A stretch of DNA of 64,000 nt, taken from assembly GCA_902546615.1 (NCBI GenBank), contig CACCKE010000005.1:19-64018 (forward strand), given 5' to 3'. Below the pieces are notes generated by a model, which made no database searches, was not told where the DNA came from, and was given only the letters and a program-made list of their open reading frames with translations. The DNA is from an uncultured Pelagibacteraceae bacterium (lineage in GTDB: Bacteria; Pseudomonadota; Alphaproteobacteria; Pelagibacterales; AG-422-B15). Position numbers and translations under genes: made by a program. Below, piece by piece: positions 2 through 6,170 of the stretch (the stretch's first letter is position 1; every line of letters starts with the position of its first letter).

Positions 2-820
2 GGTATTAATGCAACAATCTCAGGTTATGAAGAAACAATGGAACAAGCTATAAAGTTTATAAAAAATCAATTAAAAATAAAGAAACTTAATATAAAGAAA
101 AATAAAACTAACTTTCTGCCATTTAATAGAATGAAAGTTAGATTAAAAAAAGAAATTGTAAGTCTAGGTGTTGGAAAATTTAAATCAAAAGATTTTATTG
201 GCAAATATATTCCTCCGTCCGGTTGGGATGATACTATTTTAGATAAAAATATAAAGGTAATTGATGTCAGAAATATGTATGAAATAAAAATTGGCAAATT
301 TAATAAAAGTATAGATCCATTTACTAATACATTTAGAGAATTTCCTGGTAAAATTAAAAATCTAAATCTTTCTAAAAAAGATAAAATCGCAATTTATTGT
401 ACTGGAGGAATTAGATGTGAAAAAGCTTCTGCTTACCTTAAATATAGAGGTTATGAAAATATTTATCAACTTGAAGGAGGAATTCTTAACTATTTGCATT
501 ACAAAATGAATTCAGGCGAATCATCCCAATGGAAAGGAAGTTGTTTTGTATTTGATGACAGAGTGGCAATCGACAATAAACTAAATAAAAGTAAATACTC
601 GCAATGTTATGGCTGCAGAAGCCCTATTACAAAAAAAGATACTTTATCGAAATTTTACAAAAAAGGGGTAACTTGCCCATATTGCTACAATAAAAGATCA
701 ATCAAACAAAAAATGAGTTCGATGACAAGGCAAATCCAAATAGAAAAAGCTGAAAAGAAAAATATAGATCATACATTTAAAAAAATTACTAGAGACAAAT
801 CTAAAAATTCAATGATTTAA
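2..820 (+). CDS. trhO: rhodanese-domain tRNA uridine(34) hydroxylase, TrhO/YceA (UPF0176) family; 5' end cut by window edge
   Basis: The frame is open from nt 2: GINATISGYEET precedes the first listed Met. Rhodanese active-site loop YCTGGIRCEKAS. Cys-rich C-terminal tail (CYGC...CPYC). Confidence 0.8.
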   Translation, partial: GINATISGYEETMEQAIKFIKNQLKIKKLNIKKNKTNFLPFNRMKVRLKKEIVSLGVGKFKSKDFIGKYIPPSGWDDTILDKNIKVIDVRNMYEIKIGKFNKSIDPFTNTFREFPGKIKNLNLSKKDKIAIYCTGGIRCEKASAYLKYRGYENIYQLEGGILNYLHYKMNSGESSQWKGSCFVFDDRVAIDNKLNKSKYSQCYGCRSPITKKDTLSKFYKKGVTCPYCYNKRSIKQKMSSMTRQIQIEKAEKKNIDHTFKKITRDKSKNSMI

Positions 821-1298
821 TAAATTCAAAAAGATCTGTTCCATCAAACAAATAACCTTTAATTCGAAATTTATCGGCGCATTCTATATCTGTGATTTTA
901 TCACCTATAAGAAAACTTTTTGATTTATCTATATCCCATTTTTTTTCTGCTAATTCTAACATCCCTATATTAGGTTTTCTCAGGTGAGAAAGTTCTATGA
1001 ACTTATCTTTAAAATCTGGATGGTAAGGTGAATAAAAAAAATCATCAATCTGAGTTTCATTCTTTTTTAATTCCAAATTAATAAATTTATGCAAACTGTC
1101 AACATCACTTTCAGTATAATAACCTCTGGCAATACCAGATTGATTAGTTGCTACAAATACATAATAACCTCTATCTCTAATATATTTAATCGCTTCTTTT
1201 GAGCCTTTAATCCATTCAAAGTTTTCTATTTTATGCACATACCCCTTATCAACATTAAGTACTCCATCCCTATCAAAAAAAACTGCAGGTTTTGTCAT
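801..1298 (-). CDS. gmhB: D,D-heptose 1,7-bisphosphate phosphatase (HAD-IIIA, GmhB/HisB-N type)
   Basis: HAD motifs FFDRDGVLN, VATNQSGIARG and GDKITDIE. The 165-aa size is typical. The 3' end overlaps the trhO 3' end by 20 nt (convergent). Confidence 0.75.
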   Translation of the reverse strand: MTKPAVFFDRDGVLNVDKGYVHKIENFEWIKGSKEAIKYIRDRGYYVFVATNQSGIARGYYTESDVDSLHKFINLELKKNETQIDDFFYSPYHPDFKDKFIELSHLRKPNIGMLELAEKKWDIDKSKSFLIGDKITDIECADKFRIKGYLFDGTDLFEFIKSLNF

Positions 1299-1383: not shown

Positions 1384-2487
1384 TTAGGTAAGACTATCTT
1401 TTTGAGTTAAATTATATTGCACATAACCTGAGTATAAAAGAACAAATATAATTGAAGAAATAAATCCTATTAGAATTGATGCCAAAGTAACTTTAAAAAT
1501 ATTTAAAAAGTTTTCTGTTTTTTTATAATTAGATAAATCAATCGAAATCGAATAAAAAGGATCTATTTTTTTTATCTTTTCTATAACGATATCATCTGAT
1601 TTAATTTTATTTAACTGGTTATATAAAGAGTCCAAAATTACCTGCTCTCTAGAATAGTTTTCATCATATAATGATATGTCATTGTCATTTCTTTGATACA
1701 AGTTTTCTAATTCCGCTTCAAGTGCCGCATAACCTCTATAATACTCTGGAACTTTATGAAATACATTTGCATATATGCCATCTTTTATACCATCTTTCAG
1801 ATCTATTTTTCTTGCTATGTTTATTTGTTCTTGAAGATTAGTTATTTGAGTTTTTTTATCTTTTGAATATTTATTTTTTGCAATTTCAAGGTTACGTTCA
1901 GTATCAGCGATCCTATTAATTAATCTTGATTCTTTTATAGCCAATTTATTTTTTACTAGATCTATTAAGTCTTTCTTTATATTTAAGTTAATATTTCTAA
2001 TACTTTCTTCTATAACTTCATAGTGAAATGCTTGATCTTCAATATTAGAGGTAAAAATTATCTTATCTTCATTAATGAGGTAATTTTTAGATTGATTAAT
2101 CAAAAATCTGTTAATTTCATTTTCGTCGTTTAGACTGCCTTTATATTTTGCATTTAATACATTTAAAAATTCTTTATTGATTTTATATTTATCAATAAAC
2201 ATATCCTTTAATGTTTTTCTAGAAATTATTATATCTGACATATCTTCTTCTGCAATCTTGGAACCAAGTAAAAAATTATTAACCTCAAGAAACGAATAAA
2301 ATGATTTCTTTTCAATTAAAGTAATTTTATTTTCGAACGTATATGTTTTTTCTTGATTGTAATAAAAAAATAATCCCAGTAAAAATGACATTAAAGTAAT
2401 AATTAAAACAAAAACAGTCTTTTTACGAATTTCTTCAAAAAGATAAAAAAATGAAAACTCAATTTCTTTATTATTAATTTCACTCAT
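1384..2487 (-). CDS. polysaccharide chain-length determinant (Wzz / PCP-1-like)
   Basis: N-terminal TM (VFVLIITLMSFLLGLFFYY) and C-terminal TM (LASILIGFISSIIFVLLY) flank a long coiled-coil-like region. YYRGYAALEAELENL resembles the Wzz motif. Confidence 0.6.
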   Translation of the reverse strand: MSEINNKEIEFSFFYLFEEIRKKTVFVLIITLMSFLLGLFFYYNQEKTYTFENKITLIEKKSFYSFLEVNNFLLGSKIAEEDMSDIIISRKTLKDMFIDKYKINKEFLNVLNAKYKGSLNDENEINRFLINQSKNYLINEDKIIFTSNIEDQAFHYEVIEESIRNINLNIKKDLIDLVKNKLAIKESRLINRIADTERNLEIAKNKYSKDKKTQITNLQEQINIARKIDLKDGIKDGIYANVFHKVPEYYRGYAALEAELENLYQRNDNDISLYDENYSREQVILDSLYNQLNKIKSDDIVIEKIKKIDPFYSISIDLSNYKKTENFLNIFKVTLASILIGFISSIIFVLLYSGYVQYNLTQKDSLT

Positions 2488-2956
2488 TATTTAAAAATTT
2501 TTTTAATTTATAACGACTTTCACTCGATACAATAAAGCCAACACATTTTTTTGAACCACATTTGCACTGATGATCTTTAAAATCATCTTTATCAAAATCA
2601 TATCCATAATCATAACTTAATTCATCTCCTTCTTTAATATTTTTTTTTGCTATAACCCAAATTTTTCCTCGAATAATTTCTATTTCGCAATTAGGTGAAC
2701 AAGAATGATTTATATAACGAGCTTTATTGTAAGTAGGAGATCCATCAATATCATACCTGCTATTTAGCTCAAATATATAGACAGAACCATGAGTTTTTGA
2801 TTTTAAATATTTATTAATCCTCTTCTCTGATCTCAAATCTCCTTCTTTTTTTGTAATCTTTTCACCTATGTACTCAATTATTCTTTTTCCTTTTTTTATA
2901 TCCTCAGTTGCAAAGACACCTGAAGCATGTATTTTTGATTTTTTAACTTTCCACAT
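2480..2956 (-). CDS. SET-domain protein (putative protein-lysine methyltransferase) with post-SET Cys cluster
   Basis: GVFATEDIKKGKRIIEYIGE, RYINHSCSPNC (NHSC motif), GDELSYDYGYDF and post-SET CKCGSKKC. The 3' end overlaps the start of the Wzz-like gene by 8 nt. Confidence 0.85.
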   Translation of the reverse strand: MWKVKKSKIHASGVFATEDIKKGKRIIEYIGEKITKKEGDLRSEKRINKYLKSKTHGSVYIFELNSRYDIDGSPTYNKARYINHSCSPNCEIEIIRGKIWVIAKKNIKEGDELSYDYGYDFDKDDFKDHQCKCGSKKCVGFIVSSESRYKLKKFLNNE

Positions 2957-2962
2957 ATTTAT

Positions 2963-4249
2963 CTAATCTTCTTTTCTGCTTTGGAAATTATTGAAATTTA
3001 TTGAACCAAAATCATTTTTATAAAATTCATGCAAATAAAATCCAACAGGTAAATAATATATTATATTTATCCAATTATTGAATAAGTTTAAAGTTGGAAA
3101 AAATGGCCAAAAGGAAGAAAAGAAACATATTATTAAGCATATTTGGTAGTCATTAATAATATTTTTTTTGTACTTTAACTTAATAAATAAATGATATGAA
3201 AAAATTCTTAGTATATTTATAAATGCTAATATAAAAAATATTGATCCTACAATCCCTGTTTCAGCAAAAAGTTGAACTAGGTAATTATGCGGATGGGTTT
3301 GACAGGATTCACTTCCTTGACTGTACTTTTCATCATCACATTGATTCCTATAATTATTTGGACCAATTCCAATAAATGGATTTTGGATAAACATGGAATA
3401 TGATGTGAATATTAATTTTTCATGCTCAGGAGAAAATAAATGTATTTGCTCATCTTCATTATTCAAGCCTAACTGTTTAATTGTATAGTCAACATTTCTT
3501 TTTTTTGTTTCTGGAAAAGATAATGAAATAAAAATAATTATAATAATTGACAGTAAGATTGTTATTAATCTAAATAACTTGAATTTTGTTACAAAAATTA
3601 ATATTGCAATACTTGATATAAAAATTAAACCAAGCGCTGTTCTTTCTCCAGAAAAATATATTAAAATATCAGAAAGTATGAAAATAAAAAAAATTAAAAT
3701 ATAATCGATTAACCTTTTATTTTTTTGAATTAAAAAAAATGCCATCATAAATGGAAAAAGTCTAGCTAAATACTGTCCTAATACAGCATTGTCGGTGAAA
3801 GGTAGTTCAATTCTGTCAATTTGATAATTATTGCCAATTAAATTATCTTCGATCAAAATTTGATAAAAACCATATATTAATGCGATTATAATTGCTAAAT
3901 ATAAAAAACTTATAAAATTTTTTTTGAAATCATTATTATGGTCAATCACAAACCAAGTAGCTATAGCAAATATACCAAATCTGAAATATACCAAGCTTGA
4001 TTTTAGAGAGTGTAATGGTGTTTCAGATACTATAGAATTAAGTATTAAATAAATGCACAATAACAAAAAAATTATAAAAAATTTATTTTTTATATATTTG
4101 TAATCTTTACTTTGAACTAAATAAATAATAAATGTTAATGCTAATATTGATATCGCAAAGTCAGCTAAAAAAGGTCCTAATAAAATAGATAAAGGGAGCA
4201 AATAAATAATTTTACTTGAAATATTTACATAACGATCTTTACTAAACAT
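2963..4249 (-). CDS. O-antigen ligase family (Wzy_C domain) polytopic membrane protein; WaaL versus PglL-type O-oligosaccharyltransferase not distinguishable
   Basis: About 10-12 hydrophobic segments. GERTALGLIFIS and the periplasmic-loop motif HPHNYLVQLFAETGIVG are typical of Wzy_C proteins. Confidence 0.75.
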   Translation of the reverse strand: MFSKDRYVNISSKIIYLLPLSILLGPFLADFAISILALTFIIYLVQSKDYKYIKNKFFIIFLLLCIYLILNSIVSETPLHSLKSSLVYFRFGIFAIATWFVIDHNNDFKKNFISFLYLAIIIALIYGFYQILIEDNLIGNNYQIDRIELPFTDNAVLGQYLARLFPFMMAFFLIQKNKRLIDYILIFFIFILSDILIYFSGERTALGLIFISSIAILIFVTKFKLFRLITILLSIIIIIFISLSFPETKKRNVDYTIKQLGLNNEDEQIHLFSPEHEKLIFTSYSMFIQNPFIGIGPNNYRNQCDDEKYSQGSESCQTHPHNYLVQLFAETGIVGSIFFILAFINILRIFSYHLFIKLKYKKNIINDYQICLIICFFSSFWPFFPTLNLFNNWINIIYYLPVGFYLHEFYKNDFGSINFNNFQSRKED

Positions 4250-4310: not shown

Positions 4311-6170
4311 ATGAATAAATTAATTTTAAATTTAGGTAATTTAAATCGTAGATCAAAACAATTAATACAAATTATTTCTGATACTACCATTATAGTCTTG
4401 TCATATTATCTTTCTTTTTTAATAAGATTGATGGAATTCAATGACTTTTATGACTCTATAAACTTTGTATCAAATATAATATATCTCAATATTCTAGTTT
4501 TAATGGTTATATTTACTATTTCTGGTCTTTATATATCAGGTGTTTATAGATTAGTTTTAAGATTTTTAAGCAATAAAATAATAATTCAAATTGTTATCAT
4601 ATCTTTACTGTCAACAATATTTTTTTATGTTTGCTCAAATTTCACAAATGAAATTATTCCTCGTTCTGTTCCTATCTTATATGGCTTATTAATAATTTTA
4701 TTTTTTATTTCTTCCAGATTATTTGCAAAATCAATTTTAATTTTAAACAATTCAAATAAAACAAAAATATTGATTTATGGCGCTGGTGAAGGAGGACGAC
4801 AATTATTAAATTTTTTAAGTAAAGAAAGTATTTATGAGCCAATTGCATTTATTGACGATAACACATCTTTAGAAAATTTTGTAATTAATGGATTAAAAAT
4901 ACTTCAGCCTATATCAATTAATGATCTAATTATAAAAGAAAATGTAGACATGATATTACTTGCAATGCCTAGCATGAGTAGAAAGAGACGAAGGGAAGTA
5001 TTAATTTTTTTAGAAAAATTTAAAATTAAGGTAAGAACAATACCAAATCTGAATGATATTGTTTCTGGAAAATCAAAAATAAGTGAATTAAAAAATATAC
5101 CTTTTGAAGAACTTTTAGGAAGAGAGACAATCCCACCCATCAAAGAACTATTAATTAAAAATATTTACAATAAAAATGTGGTGGTTACGGGAGCTGGCGG
5201 ATCTATAGGTAGCGAGATGTGTATTCAAATTATGGAACAAAAGCCAGCCAGTCTTATTCTTCTTGATAACTCAGAATTTGCTTTGTATAAGATTTATTCT
5301 AAAATTTATAACAAATACTCAAGTAATAATGATTCAAAAGTAATCCCAATGCTGGGTAATGTCCAAGATGAATATTTAGTCAATGATATATTAAATAAAT
5401 ATAGTATTAATACAATATATCATACTGCAGCCTATAAACATGTCCCTCTAGTTGAGATTAATTCAATTGAGGCAGTAAAGAATAATATTATTGGAACTAA
5501 GAATATCCTTGATTGCGCAATAAATAATAAAGTATCTTCATTTACTCTTATATCAACAGATAAAGCGGTAAACCCGGTAAACATCATGGGTTATTCAAAA
5601 AGATTTTCAGAACTAGTATGTCAGGCTATATCTACTAGAAATAAAACAACAAAAGTAAGTATTGTTAGATTTGGAAACGTCCTTGGTTCTTCTGGATCAG
5701 TAATCCCATTATTTTCGAAACAAATAAACGATGGTGGGCCAATAACAGTTACACACCAGGATGTCGCAAGATATTTTATGACAATTAAAGAAGCATCAGA
5801 ACTAGTAATACAGGCTTCTGCTATGATGAATAAAGGTCAAGTTTTTATCTTAGACATGGGCGAACAAATTAAAATTTTAGATGTTGCAAAAAGAATGGCT
5901 TCGATTCAAGGTTATACACCATACATAAGTAACAAAGATGAAGCGGGCGACCTTGAAATAAAAATAATAGGCCTCAGAAAAGGTGAAAAACTTAGAGAGG
6001 AGTTATATTACACAAATGAAGTTAGCTCGACTAATCATCCAAGAATTATCTGTGCTCATGAGAATATAATTGATCTTATAGAAATAGAGAAAAAATTTAG
6101 AGAAATTCACTCTGCTTTAGAAAATAGAGATGAAAAAGAAATAAAAAATATTTTGACGAGTATCATTTAG
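4311..6170 (+). CDS. membrane-anchored UDP-N-acetylglucosamine 4,6-dehydratase, CapD/PglF/WbpM family
   Basis: Four N-terminal TM segments. Second Rossmann motif VVVTGAGGSIGSEMC, then YHTAAYKHVPLVE, STDKAVNPVNIMGYSKRFSE and RFGNVLGSSGSVIPLF. Confidence 0.85.
   Translation: MNKLILNLGNLNRRSKQLIQIISDTTIIVLSYYLSFLIRLMEFNDFYDSINFVSNIIYLNILVLMVIFTISGLYISGVYRLVLRFLSNKIIIQIVIISLLSTIFFYVCSNFTNEIIPRSVPILYGLLIILFFISSRLFAKSILILNNSNKTKILIYGAGEGGRQLLNFLSKESIYEPIAFIDDNTSLENFVINGLKILQPISINDLIIKENVDMILLAMPSMSRKRRREVLIFLEKFKIKVRTIPNLNDIVSGKSKISELKNIPFEELLGRETIPPIKELLIKNIYNKNVVVTGAGGSIGSEMCIQIMEQKPASLILLDNSEFALYKIYSKIYNKYSSNNDSKVIPMLGNVQDEYLVNDILNKYSINTIYHTAAYKHVPLVEINSIEAVKNNIIGTKNILDCAINNKVSSFTLISTDKAVNPVNIMGYSKRFSELVCQAISTRNKTTKVSIVRFGNVLGSSGSVIPLFSKQINDGGPITVTHQDVARYFMTIKEASELVIQASAMMNKGQVFILDMGEQIKILDVAKRMASIQGYTPYISNKDEAGDLEIKIIGLRKGEKLREELYYTNEVSSTNHPRIICAHENIIDLIEIEKKFREIHSALENRDEKEIKNILTSII

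Follow-up and report, generated by a model that had tools for sequence, protein, structure and literature searches.

Two small prokaryotic SET proteins, Go1-SET of Methanosarcina mazei and cpnSET of Chlamydia pneumoniae, act on DNA-binding proteins of their own cells, and such chromatin proteins (Methanosarcina MC1-alpha for Go1-SET and Chlamydia Hc1 for cpnSET) are the only endogenous substrates reported for prokaryotic SET enzymes (PMC3980110, PMC10117894). Other described members are the nucleomodulins RomA/LegAS4 (Legionella), BtSET (Burkholderia) and BaSET (Bacillus anthracis), as well as BurB, a methionine S-methyltransferase of Burkholderia thailandensis that works within a biosynthetic gene cluster (PMC12542666). 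Here, we analyzed a SET-domain gene in a 64,000-nucleotide stretch of DNA from an uncultured Pelagibacteraceae bacterium of the order Pelagibacterales (SAR11; contig CACCKE010000005.1), referred to below as the window. Our preferred interpretation, to which we assign a probability of about 0.6, is that its product is a soluble, stand-alone SET/post-SET protein-lysine methyltransferase that depends on S-adenosylmethionine (SAM) and acts on a conserved cellular protein, and that its place at a junction of core and flexible genome is a matter of position. Go1-SET and cpnSET provide the best functional analogy for a free-living organism, the likeness being one of function; cpnSET/NUE differs in that it is also secreted. 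The nucleomodulins have the SET catalytic core in common with the window protein, but the latter falls far below the NF043024 cut-off, has no ankyrin or targeting region and no secretion-system context, and belongs to a free-living, streamlined host. BurB is likewise a small stand-alone bacterial SET-fold enzyme, whereas no such biosynthetic partners were seen beside the window gene, and its product has a conserved post-SET zinc motif.

The gene occupies positions 2480..2956 on the minus strand, starts with ATG and codes for 158 amino acids according to the list of open reading frames (ORFs); the assignment as SET plus post-SET draws on Pfam, PDB sequences, an AlphaFold2 (AF2) model and Foldseek. 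In public databases it is annotated as a 'SET domain-containing protein-lysine N-methyltransferase'. SET was the sole Pfam domain of the protein (PF00856, 91.2 bits against a cut-off of 22.4 bits, E 6.7e-26), and the match was full length, covering positions 3-105 of the 105-position profile. The initial annotation, which was made from the sequence alone and described a complete SET ORF with its signature motifs, was borne out: NHSC (residues 83-86, positions 2699..2710), ELSYDY (residues 112-117, 2606..2623) and the post-SET zinc-cluster motif CKCGSKKC (CxCx4C, residues 131-138, 2543..2566), all on the minus strand, could be read directly from the DNA. By analogy with known SET enzymes, N83 and H84 would form the SAM-binding/pseudoknot pair, C86 would complete a predicted post-SET zinc site and Y117 is the predicted active-site Tyr. 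The protein has neither a transmembrane (TM) or other hydrophobic segment nor a signal peptide. Because of this absence of hydrophobic segments and an isoelectric point of 9.3, it is predicted to be a soluble, cytoplasmic enzyme.

Multiple alignment of 52 homologues from several phyla showed that G13, A16, Y29, G31, A79, I82, N83, H84, C86, P88, N89, C90, I107, E112, Y117, C131, C133 and C138 are invariant in all of them. Among them are the Asn-His pair for SAM binding, the Tyr of the active site and the four Cys of the predicted zinc site; the NHSC and catalytic Tyr positions are therefore truly conserved, a point on which the initial annotation had made its reading depend. Residue 115 aligns with Y3942 of MLL1, the Phe/Tyr product-specificity switch of SET enzymes; the window protein and SAR11 sequences carry Tyr at this position, and many verrucomicrobial members carry Phe.

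By both sequence and modelled fold, the best matches were the catalytic domains of the KMT2/SET1 group (MLL1-4 and Set1). The closest PDB sequences were the SET and post-SET regions of KMT2D, KMT2C, KMT2A and yeast Set1 (E 9e-25 to 1e-20), which were 33-37% identical to the window protein over ~135-145 residues; ASH1L, NSD and SETD2 came next. Shared motifs are NHSCxPNC, ELxYDY (ELSYDY aligns to ELTYDY of KMT2) and CxCx4C, and the Phe/Tyr switch is a Tyr in both. An AF2 model based on the 52-sequence cross-phylum alignment had a predicted local distance difference test score (pLDDT) of 90.6 and a predicted template modelling score (pTM) of 0.82, and superseded an earlier, poor model from 30 close homologues (pLDDT 56.6). 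When this model was used as a Foldseek query, 356 PDB matches were found at E<=0.001; the SET domains of MLL1-4 came first (TM-score 0.72-0.74, ~145 aligned residues), and the top 50 were eukaryotic protein-lysine methyltransferases throughout. The window protein is thus modelled with the SET beta-fold and, judged by motifs and model together, looks like an intact SET/post-SET protein-lysine methyltransferase, complete and active. It differs from the KMT2/SET1 proteins in consisting of 158 residues only, with no N-SET region, WIN motif or further domain; moreover, the COMPASS partners WDR5, RbBP5, ASH2L and DPY30, which are needed by KMT2/SET1, are absent from bacteria, and the cell has no histones. 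Because other domains and COMPASS partners are missing, the protein can be likened to the KMT2 catalytic core but falls outside the KMT2 family.

SAR11 bacteria rank among the most abundant organisms of the ocean, and few free-living cells have a genome as streamlined as theirs. An ortholog of the SET gene was present in 272 of the 301 genomes of the order. It occurred in 15 of 16 genomes of the window's genus (designated g1), in all 7 genomes of g2, and in 223 of 231 and 24 of 25 genomes of the Pelagibacter-type genera g3 and g8, respectively, and was found in none of the genomes of g4 (8 genomes), g7 (3), g9 (5) and g10 (1). Five complete g4 and g7 genomes contained no SET domain, even by the Pfam model at E 0.01. 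The genome from which the window was derived (an 879-kb assembly, 58% complete) had one SET copy. Across most SAR11 lineages, the SET gene is conserved, single-copy and core-like.

Outside the order the distribution was patchy. Throughout the class, a SET match at E<=1e-10 was detected in 15 of 401 genomes (11 of 295 genera), and among 14 model genomes compared with the SET profile, Methanosarcina alone gave a match. Close homologues, 41-61% identical over the full length, were detected in HIMB59-like alphaproteobacteria, many Verrucomicrobiota, Omnitrophota, one planctomycete and metagenome-assembled genomes (MAGs) of Woese-, Pace- and Nanoarchaeota (DPANN). A search of 1.84 billion cluster representatives yielded 67 matches at E<=1e-30 and 4,014 at E<=1e-10. 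In a quick tree, SAR11, HIMB59-like and a few DPANN sequences clustered together and apart from Verrucomicrobiota, with modest support. This is a patchy prokaryotic family of stand-alone SET/post-SET proteins that has been kept almost throughout SAR11, and, although most other alphaproteobacteria are without one, a eukaryote-like SET of the KMT2 type is retained in most SAR11 lineages. Identification of its target would give the first case of a SET enzyme with an endogenous role in a free-living bacterium, and the SAR11 genera that are cleanly without the gene offer natural controls that make the question tractable. The SET sequence of P. ubique has been included in a SET phylogeny (PMC9018016), and the literature that we searched assigned no function or substrate to the SAR11 SET protein.

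Several additional observations concern the homologues. In a MAG labelled Woesearchaeota (L109:4672-6486), a SET homologue 56% identical to the window protein adjoined a TrhO-like gene, whose product was 39% identical to that of the window, and also neighboured a gene for an Ogt/ATL-like DNA-binding domain; two 'Methanosarcinales' MAGs (L100 and L104) contained SET sequences up to 61% identical. The labels of these three MAGs may reflect mis-binning or lateral transfer. A phage origin was considered and rejected: phrog_28741, a mini-SET family of marine phages, gave a marginal match (E 3.5e-4, 21.6 bits, residues 80-119), and a tblastn search of 50,697 phage records with the SET protein gave no match. 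The mini-SET has the SET fold in common with the window protein and was judged to be a different family. SETs of the Pelagibacter and g2 types (e.g., L141 and L155) were ~7-9 residues shorter near window residues 40-57, a region that corresponds to an inserted helix and is retained in the window's family, Verrucomicrobiota and archaeal members; in other SET enzymes, a helix inserted in the SET domain lines the substrate groove. In-frame stops were present in two homologues, one in a Lacunisphaera MAG (L123:6001-6450) and one, a TGA, in a complete Pelagibacter genome (G167:C1:73703-74101), and these sequences are possible pseudogenes or sequencing errors.

Under the preferred interpretation, the mechanism would follow that of homologous enzymes: SAM would bind at the NH/Y117 pocket, the zinc cluster formed by the three post-SET Cys and C86 would close the lysine channel, and a lysine of the substrate protein would be methylated. 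Mono- or di-methylation is predicted because a Tyr (Y115) occupies the Phe/Tyr switch position. Since the enzyme travels by itself and no partner gene is conserved alongside it, its substrate should exist in every recipient lineage and is most likely a conserved, abundant cellular protein. Our rough odds for its identity, within this interpretation, are about 1 in 3 for a nucleoid or other DNA-associated protein, about 1 in 3 for a component of the translation apparatus and about 1 in 3 for any other protein; the neighbouring glycan-assembly proteins are not likely targets. Ribosomal proteins and eEF1A are also methylated by eukaryotic SET enzymes. Methylation of uL14 by Rkm1 has been reported (PMC11248248).

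Two ideas about functional partners were rejected. A histone deacetylase (HDAC)-family gene (309 aa, PF00850, 321 bits; L027:9434-10363, minus strand) was observed directly upstream of SET on the same strand, and in the same position in the g3/g8 loci L025-L038, L062-L064 and L071-L079. It is probably not an obligate partner: the HDAC-like gene was present in all genera including the SET-less g4, and its distance from SET was ~60 kb in the window's genus and large in g2. Likewise, substitution of SET for the uL11 methyltransferase PrmA was not supported. The 61 SAR11 genomes contained no full-length PrmA, only partial class-I methyltransferase matches (24-42 bits, profile positions ~150-260), and no complementary pattern was seen between genomes with and without SET.

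Within the window, the SET gene lies between two glycan-related genes of the same strand. Upstream is a gene for a polytopic membrane protein of the Wzy_C family (O-antigen ligase/polymerase/O-oligosaccharyltransferase type; 2963..4249, minus strand) with at least 10 hydrophobic segments, and this family call proved solid (PF04932, 63.5 bits against a cut-off of 31.7). Downstream is a gene (1384..2487, minus strand) that had been called Wzz-like. Its product has the two-TM topology of a type 1 polysaccharide co-polymerase (PCP-1; TM segments 24-42 and 333-351), but its Pfam Wzz score of 21.4 bits is under the cut-off of 25.5, and the label appears reasonable but weak. Further on are a GmhB-like heptose-bisphosphate phosphatase gene (801..1298, minus strand), which is the last glycan gene before the core flank and scored ~145 bits with NCBIfam PRK08942/TIGR00213, slightly below the cut-offs, and above the cut-off of the HAD-IIIA subfamily, and the convergent trhO (tRNA U34 hydroxylase of the rhodanese type; 38..820, plus strand; NF001133 TrhO, 210.9 bits), which is cut by the contig start and opens the conserved core flank.

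The initial annotation had concluded from the spacing of these genes that SET is part of a glycan-assembly operon and is wired into glycan assembly. The spacing itself is correct. The Wzy_C stop codon (TAG, 2963-2965) and the SET start codon (ATG, 2954-2956) leave a 6-nt gap, the start of the Wzz-like ORF precedes the SET stop so that the two overlap by 8 nt, and SET runs in the same direction as the closely packed glycan genes around it, with which it is likely co-transcribed. However, same-strand gaps in the window had a median of 2 nt, were <=10 nt in 39 of 54 pairs and were overlaps in 23 of 54. Because such tight packing is generic here, co-transcription is uninformative about function, and the step from coupling to a role in glycan assembly is not supported. 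It was also claimed that SET is not an insertion. Here we agree, at least with regard to a recent one, because the GC content of the gene (26.8%) is close to that of the window (27.3%), unlike those of the two flanking genes (22.7-22.8%); trhO has 26.1%.

We further compared 25 loci of the window's genus, 24 of which extend as far as the trhO flank. trhO was located 0-2 genes downstream of SET in all 24, followed by acyltransferase, HhH-GPD glycosylase and SCP2 genes, and a variable glycan island lay upstream of SET in every locus. In the window's family, SET is one or two genes inside the trhO-side border of a hypervariable surface-glycan island. A Wzy_C homologue adjoined SET in 14 of 25 loci (upstream in 10 and downstream in 4), was 2-3 genes away in 3 and was not seen in the other 8. 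Between SET and trhO, the slot was either empty or occupied by different genes, including GmhA (SIS), GalE-like epimerase, Wzz-like (4 of 25 loci), GmhB, Wzy_C and a 445-aa protein. The recurrence of the SET-Wzz-ligase arrangement in relatives, which the initial annotation had proposed as a check, was limited to 2 of 25 loci for the exact Wzy_C-SET-Wzz trio, and, as described below, the contexts in g2, g3 and g8 were unrelated; to a large extent, this is the pattern that the initial annotation itself had named as speaking against its reading. Median pairwise identity within the genus was 71% for SET, 55% for TrhO, 55-76% for core-flank genes and 44% for Wzy_C (range 31-86% between genomes). 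SET stays constant while the surrounding glycan genes turn over.

In other lineages the context changed. In a sister genus of the same family (L066), SET was situated beyond trhO, HhH-GPD and SCP2, that is, outside the island. Pelagibacter and g8 showed the order yidC-argB-HAD-dapD-dapE-(HDAC-like)-SET, convergent with truA-fmt-def. In g2, a flexible region was followed by SET and then by conserved gcrA-ABC2-argD-argF-trkH. Wzy_C genes in g2, g3 and g8 were 70-1300 kb from SET, trhO was elsewhere, and cultured-type Pelagibacter genomes lacked glycan genes in the vicinity of SET. In g2, the region upstream of SET was phosphate-related and different in each of three genomes (L022:9363-11583, L023:9377-14292 and L024:9248-16471): two genomes contained low-molecular-weight phosphatase/ArsC, MIP, PhoR-like kinase, Ppx and Ppk genes, and the third contained EamA, iron-containing alcohol dehydrogenase, aldehyde dehydrogenase, phosphodiesterase, LysR, PHO4 and PhoU-like genes. 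In HIMB59-like genomes, glycosyltransferase family 4 (GT4) and metallophosphoesterase genes were divergent beside SET, the GT4 gene being two genes off. According to a figure legend for HIMB59, a SET-domain gene is among the genes drawn with the phosphate island (PMC10734472), and the g2 region upstream of SET resembles this island. At three g3 loci (L029, L070 and L072), SET was observed at a synteny breakpoint; the downstream truA-fmt-def block of L029 was swapped for another gene block, and the same block replaced the upstream dapE/HDAC run in L070 and L072.

Outside SAR11 and HIMB59, we annotated 40 immediate SET neighbours, 24 of which had a Pfam match and one of which was a glycosyltransferase (MGDG-synthase-like). 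The remaining neighbours were unrelated (Na/H exchanger, NUDIX, QueH, SpoU, MnmA, IleRS, GyrA, RuvC, Fur, TerC, proteases and others), and lineage-level neighbours elsewhere included ExoIII, CinA, an Ogt-like protein and CrcB. Among the neighbours in other phyla, tRNA modification and DNA repair or topology are slightly favoured, a category that was picked post hoc and serves as a lead only. The common denominator is a position of SET at the core/flexible junction, whatever the island carries. One candidate explanation is that the gene was acquired long ago with an island, became fixed and now acts as an anchor for homologous recombination; alternatively, SET may have a genuine function in envelope remodelling or island regulation.

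Several points weigh against the interpretation of a conserved enzyme whose location is a matter of position. Glycan genes were found on both sides of SET in nearly all genomes of the window's genus. In some Pelagibacter and g8 sublineages, a one-gene slot between SET and truA was occupied by a GT1-like gene (5 loci: L143:6459-7598, L148, L157, L170 and L173) or a GT2 gene (5 loci: L151:6417-7166, L154, L158, L169 and L065:7393-8166), or was empty, and these states were interleaved among closely related SET sequences on the SET tree; the recurrence of glycan genes after SET in an otherwise housekeeping context may be more than position. Pairwise SET divergence correlated neither with that of the core flank (rho 0.01) nor with that of Wzy_C (rho 0.10). 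The comparison is uninformative, and vertical co-inheritance of SET with the core flank is not demonstrated. No neighbour gene was conserved across the lineages that could indicate a substrate. The gene is also dispensable: it was cleanly missing between the HDAC-like gene and truA in g4, in which the two genes are ~10 nt apart in complete genomes with no SET remnant (L177:4894-4905 and L178:5390-5401), and it was not found in g7, g9 and g10. Finally, KMT2-type SET domains are weak without partner proteins, and stand-alone activity of the window protein is assumed.

Some of these points would be expected if the SET protein were a functional part of surface-glycan assembly, methylating the cytoplasmic part of the Wzy_C/Wzz/glycosyltransferase machinery, a glycoprotein, or an amino group linked to a sugar or glycan, much as the initial annotation had suggested. 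This explanation draws on the glycan genes that flank SET on both sides in the window's genus, with Wzy_C adjoining on either side in 14 loci and GmhA, GalE-like, Wzz-like, GmhB or Wzy_C genes filling the trhO-side slot, on the flexible GT1/GT2 slot directly downstream of SET in a non-glycan context, on the GT4 gene two genes away in HIMB59-like genomes, and on BurB, which shows that SET enzymes are able to act on non-protein substrates (PMC12542666). We nevertheless consider it unlikely. Cultured-type Pelagibacter keeps the enzyme with Wzy_C far away and no glycan gene nearby; the flexible region beside SET is phosphate-related in g2 and, as far as the figure legend goes, in HIMB59-like genomes (PMC10734472); and the presence of Wzy_C was not tied to that of SET, since none of the five complete g4/g7 genomes had SET and four of them retained Wzy_C. 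The adjoining glycan genes are swapped or only 44% identical where SET is 71% identical, the exact trio is confined to 2 of 25 loci, and a glycosyltransferase was 1 of 40 neighbours in other phyla. In addition, the predicted location of SET is the cytoplasm, and most of Wzz and Wzy_C is in the periplasm or embedded in the membrane. The glycan-assembly role is thus largely unsupported, and proximity to glycan genes is a matter of position.

A broader functional explanation is that the position is not accidental, that four or more streamlined marine lineages have SET as a marker of the core/flexible junction, and that the enzyme is tied to surface or envelope remodelling or to the control of AT-rich islands by nucleoid proteins; we regard this as doubtful. 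The junctions in question are those of the glycan island of the window's family, the GT1/GT2 slot of Pelagibacter sublineages and the phosphate-type islands of g2 and HIMB59-like genomes. Just as speculatively, the enzyme might then methylate a protein of envelope assembly, an amino group of a glycan or glycan precursor, or else a nucleoid protein that governs expression of AT-rich islands.

It is quite improbable that the SET protein is a small-molecule methyltransferase that makes a methylated metabolite. BurB, a stand-alone bacterial SET enzyme, acts on free methionine (PMC12542666), which sets a precedent, and no gene for a protein partner is conserved beside SET. SAR11 metabolism is also rich in methylated compounds. 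However, the 50 best Foldseek matches were all protein-lysine methyltransferases, with BurB absent from them; the invariant post-SET zinc cluster and channel Tyr are typical of lysine methyltransferases, and the paper on the BurB structure makes no mention of zinc (PMC12542666); and no burI/D/E-like pathway genes were seen among the SET neighbours.

An action on eukaryotic histones, for instance those of protist grazers, is very improbable, in agreement with the initial annotation, which had set a host-histone effector role aside: the window protein is related most closely, among characterised enzymes, to eukaryotic H3K4/H3K36 methyltransferases, host histones are the substrate of almost all bacterial SET proteins characterised to date (PMC10117894) and a weak NCBIfam LegAS4 match was found, but this match (NF043024) reached 31.9 bits against a cut-off of 550 and covered the SET core only, the 158 residues include no signal peptide, ankyrin repeat or targeting domain, DPANN archaea and free-living Verrucomicrobiota have members of the family too, and SAR11 bacteria are free-living and not known to have a protein-injection system.

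The window as a whole is 98% coding. A scan for promoters and terminators gave counts at or under the shuffled expectation and was uninformative at its GC content of 27%, and an Rfam scan of the window revealed no RNA family. Next to the Wzy_C gene is an island gene for a PglF/CapD-type membrane-anchored sugar 4,6-dehydratase (4311..6170, plus strand; Pfam Polysacc_synt_2, 376 bits), and positions 801-54420 on the minus strand form a near-continuous run of ~50 genes related to glycans, in which the gaps have a median of 2 nt.

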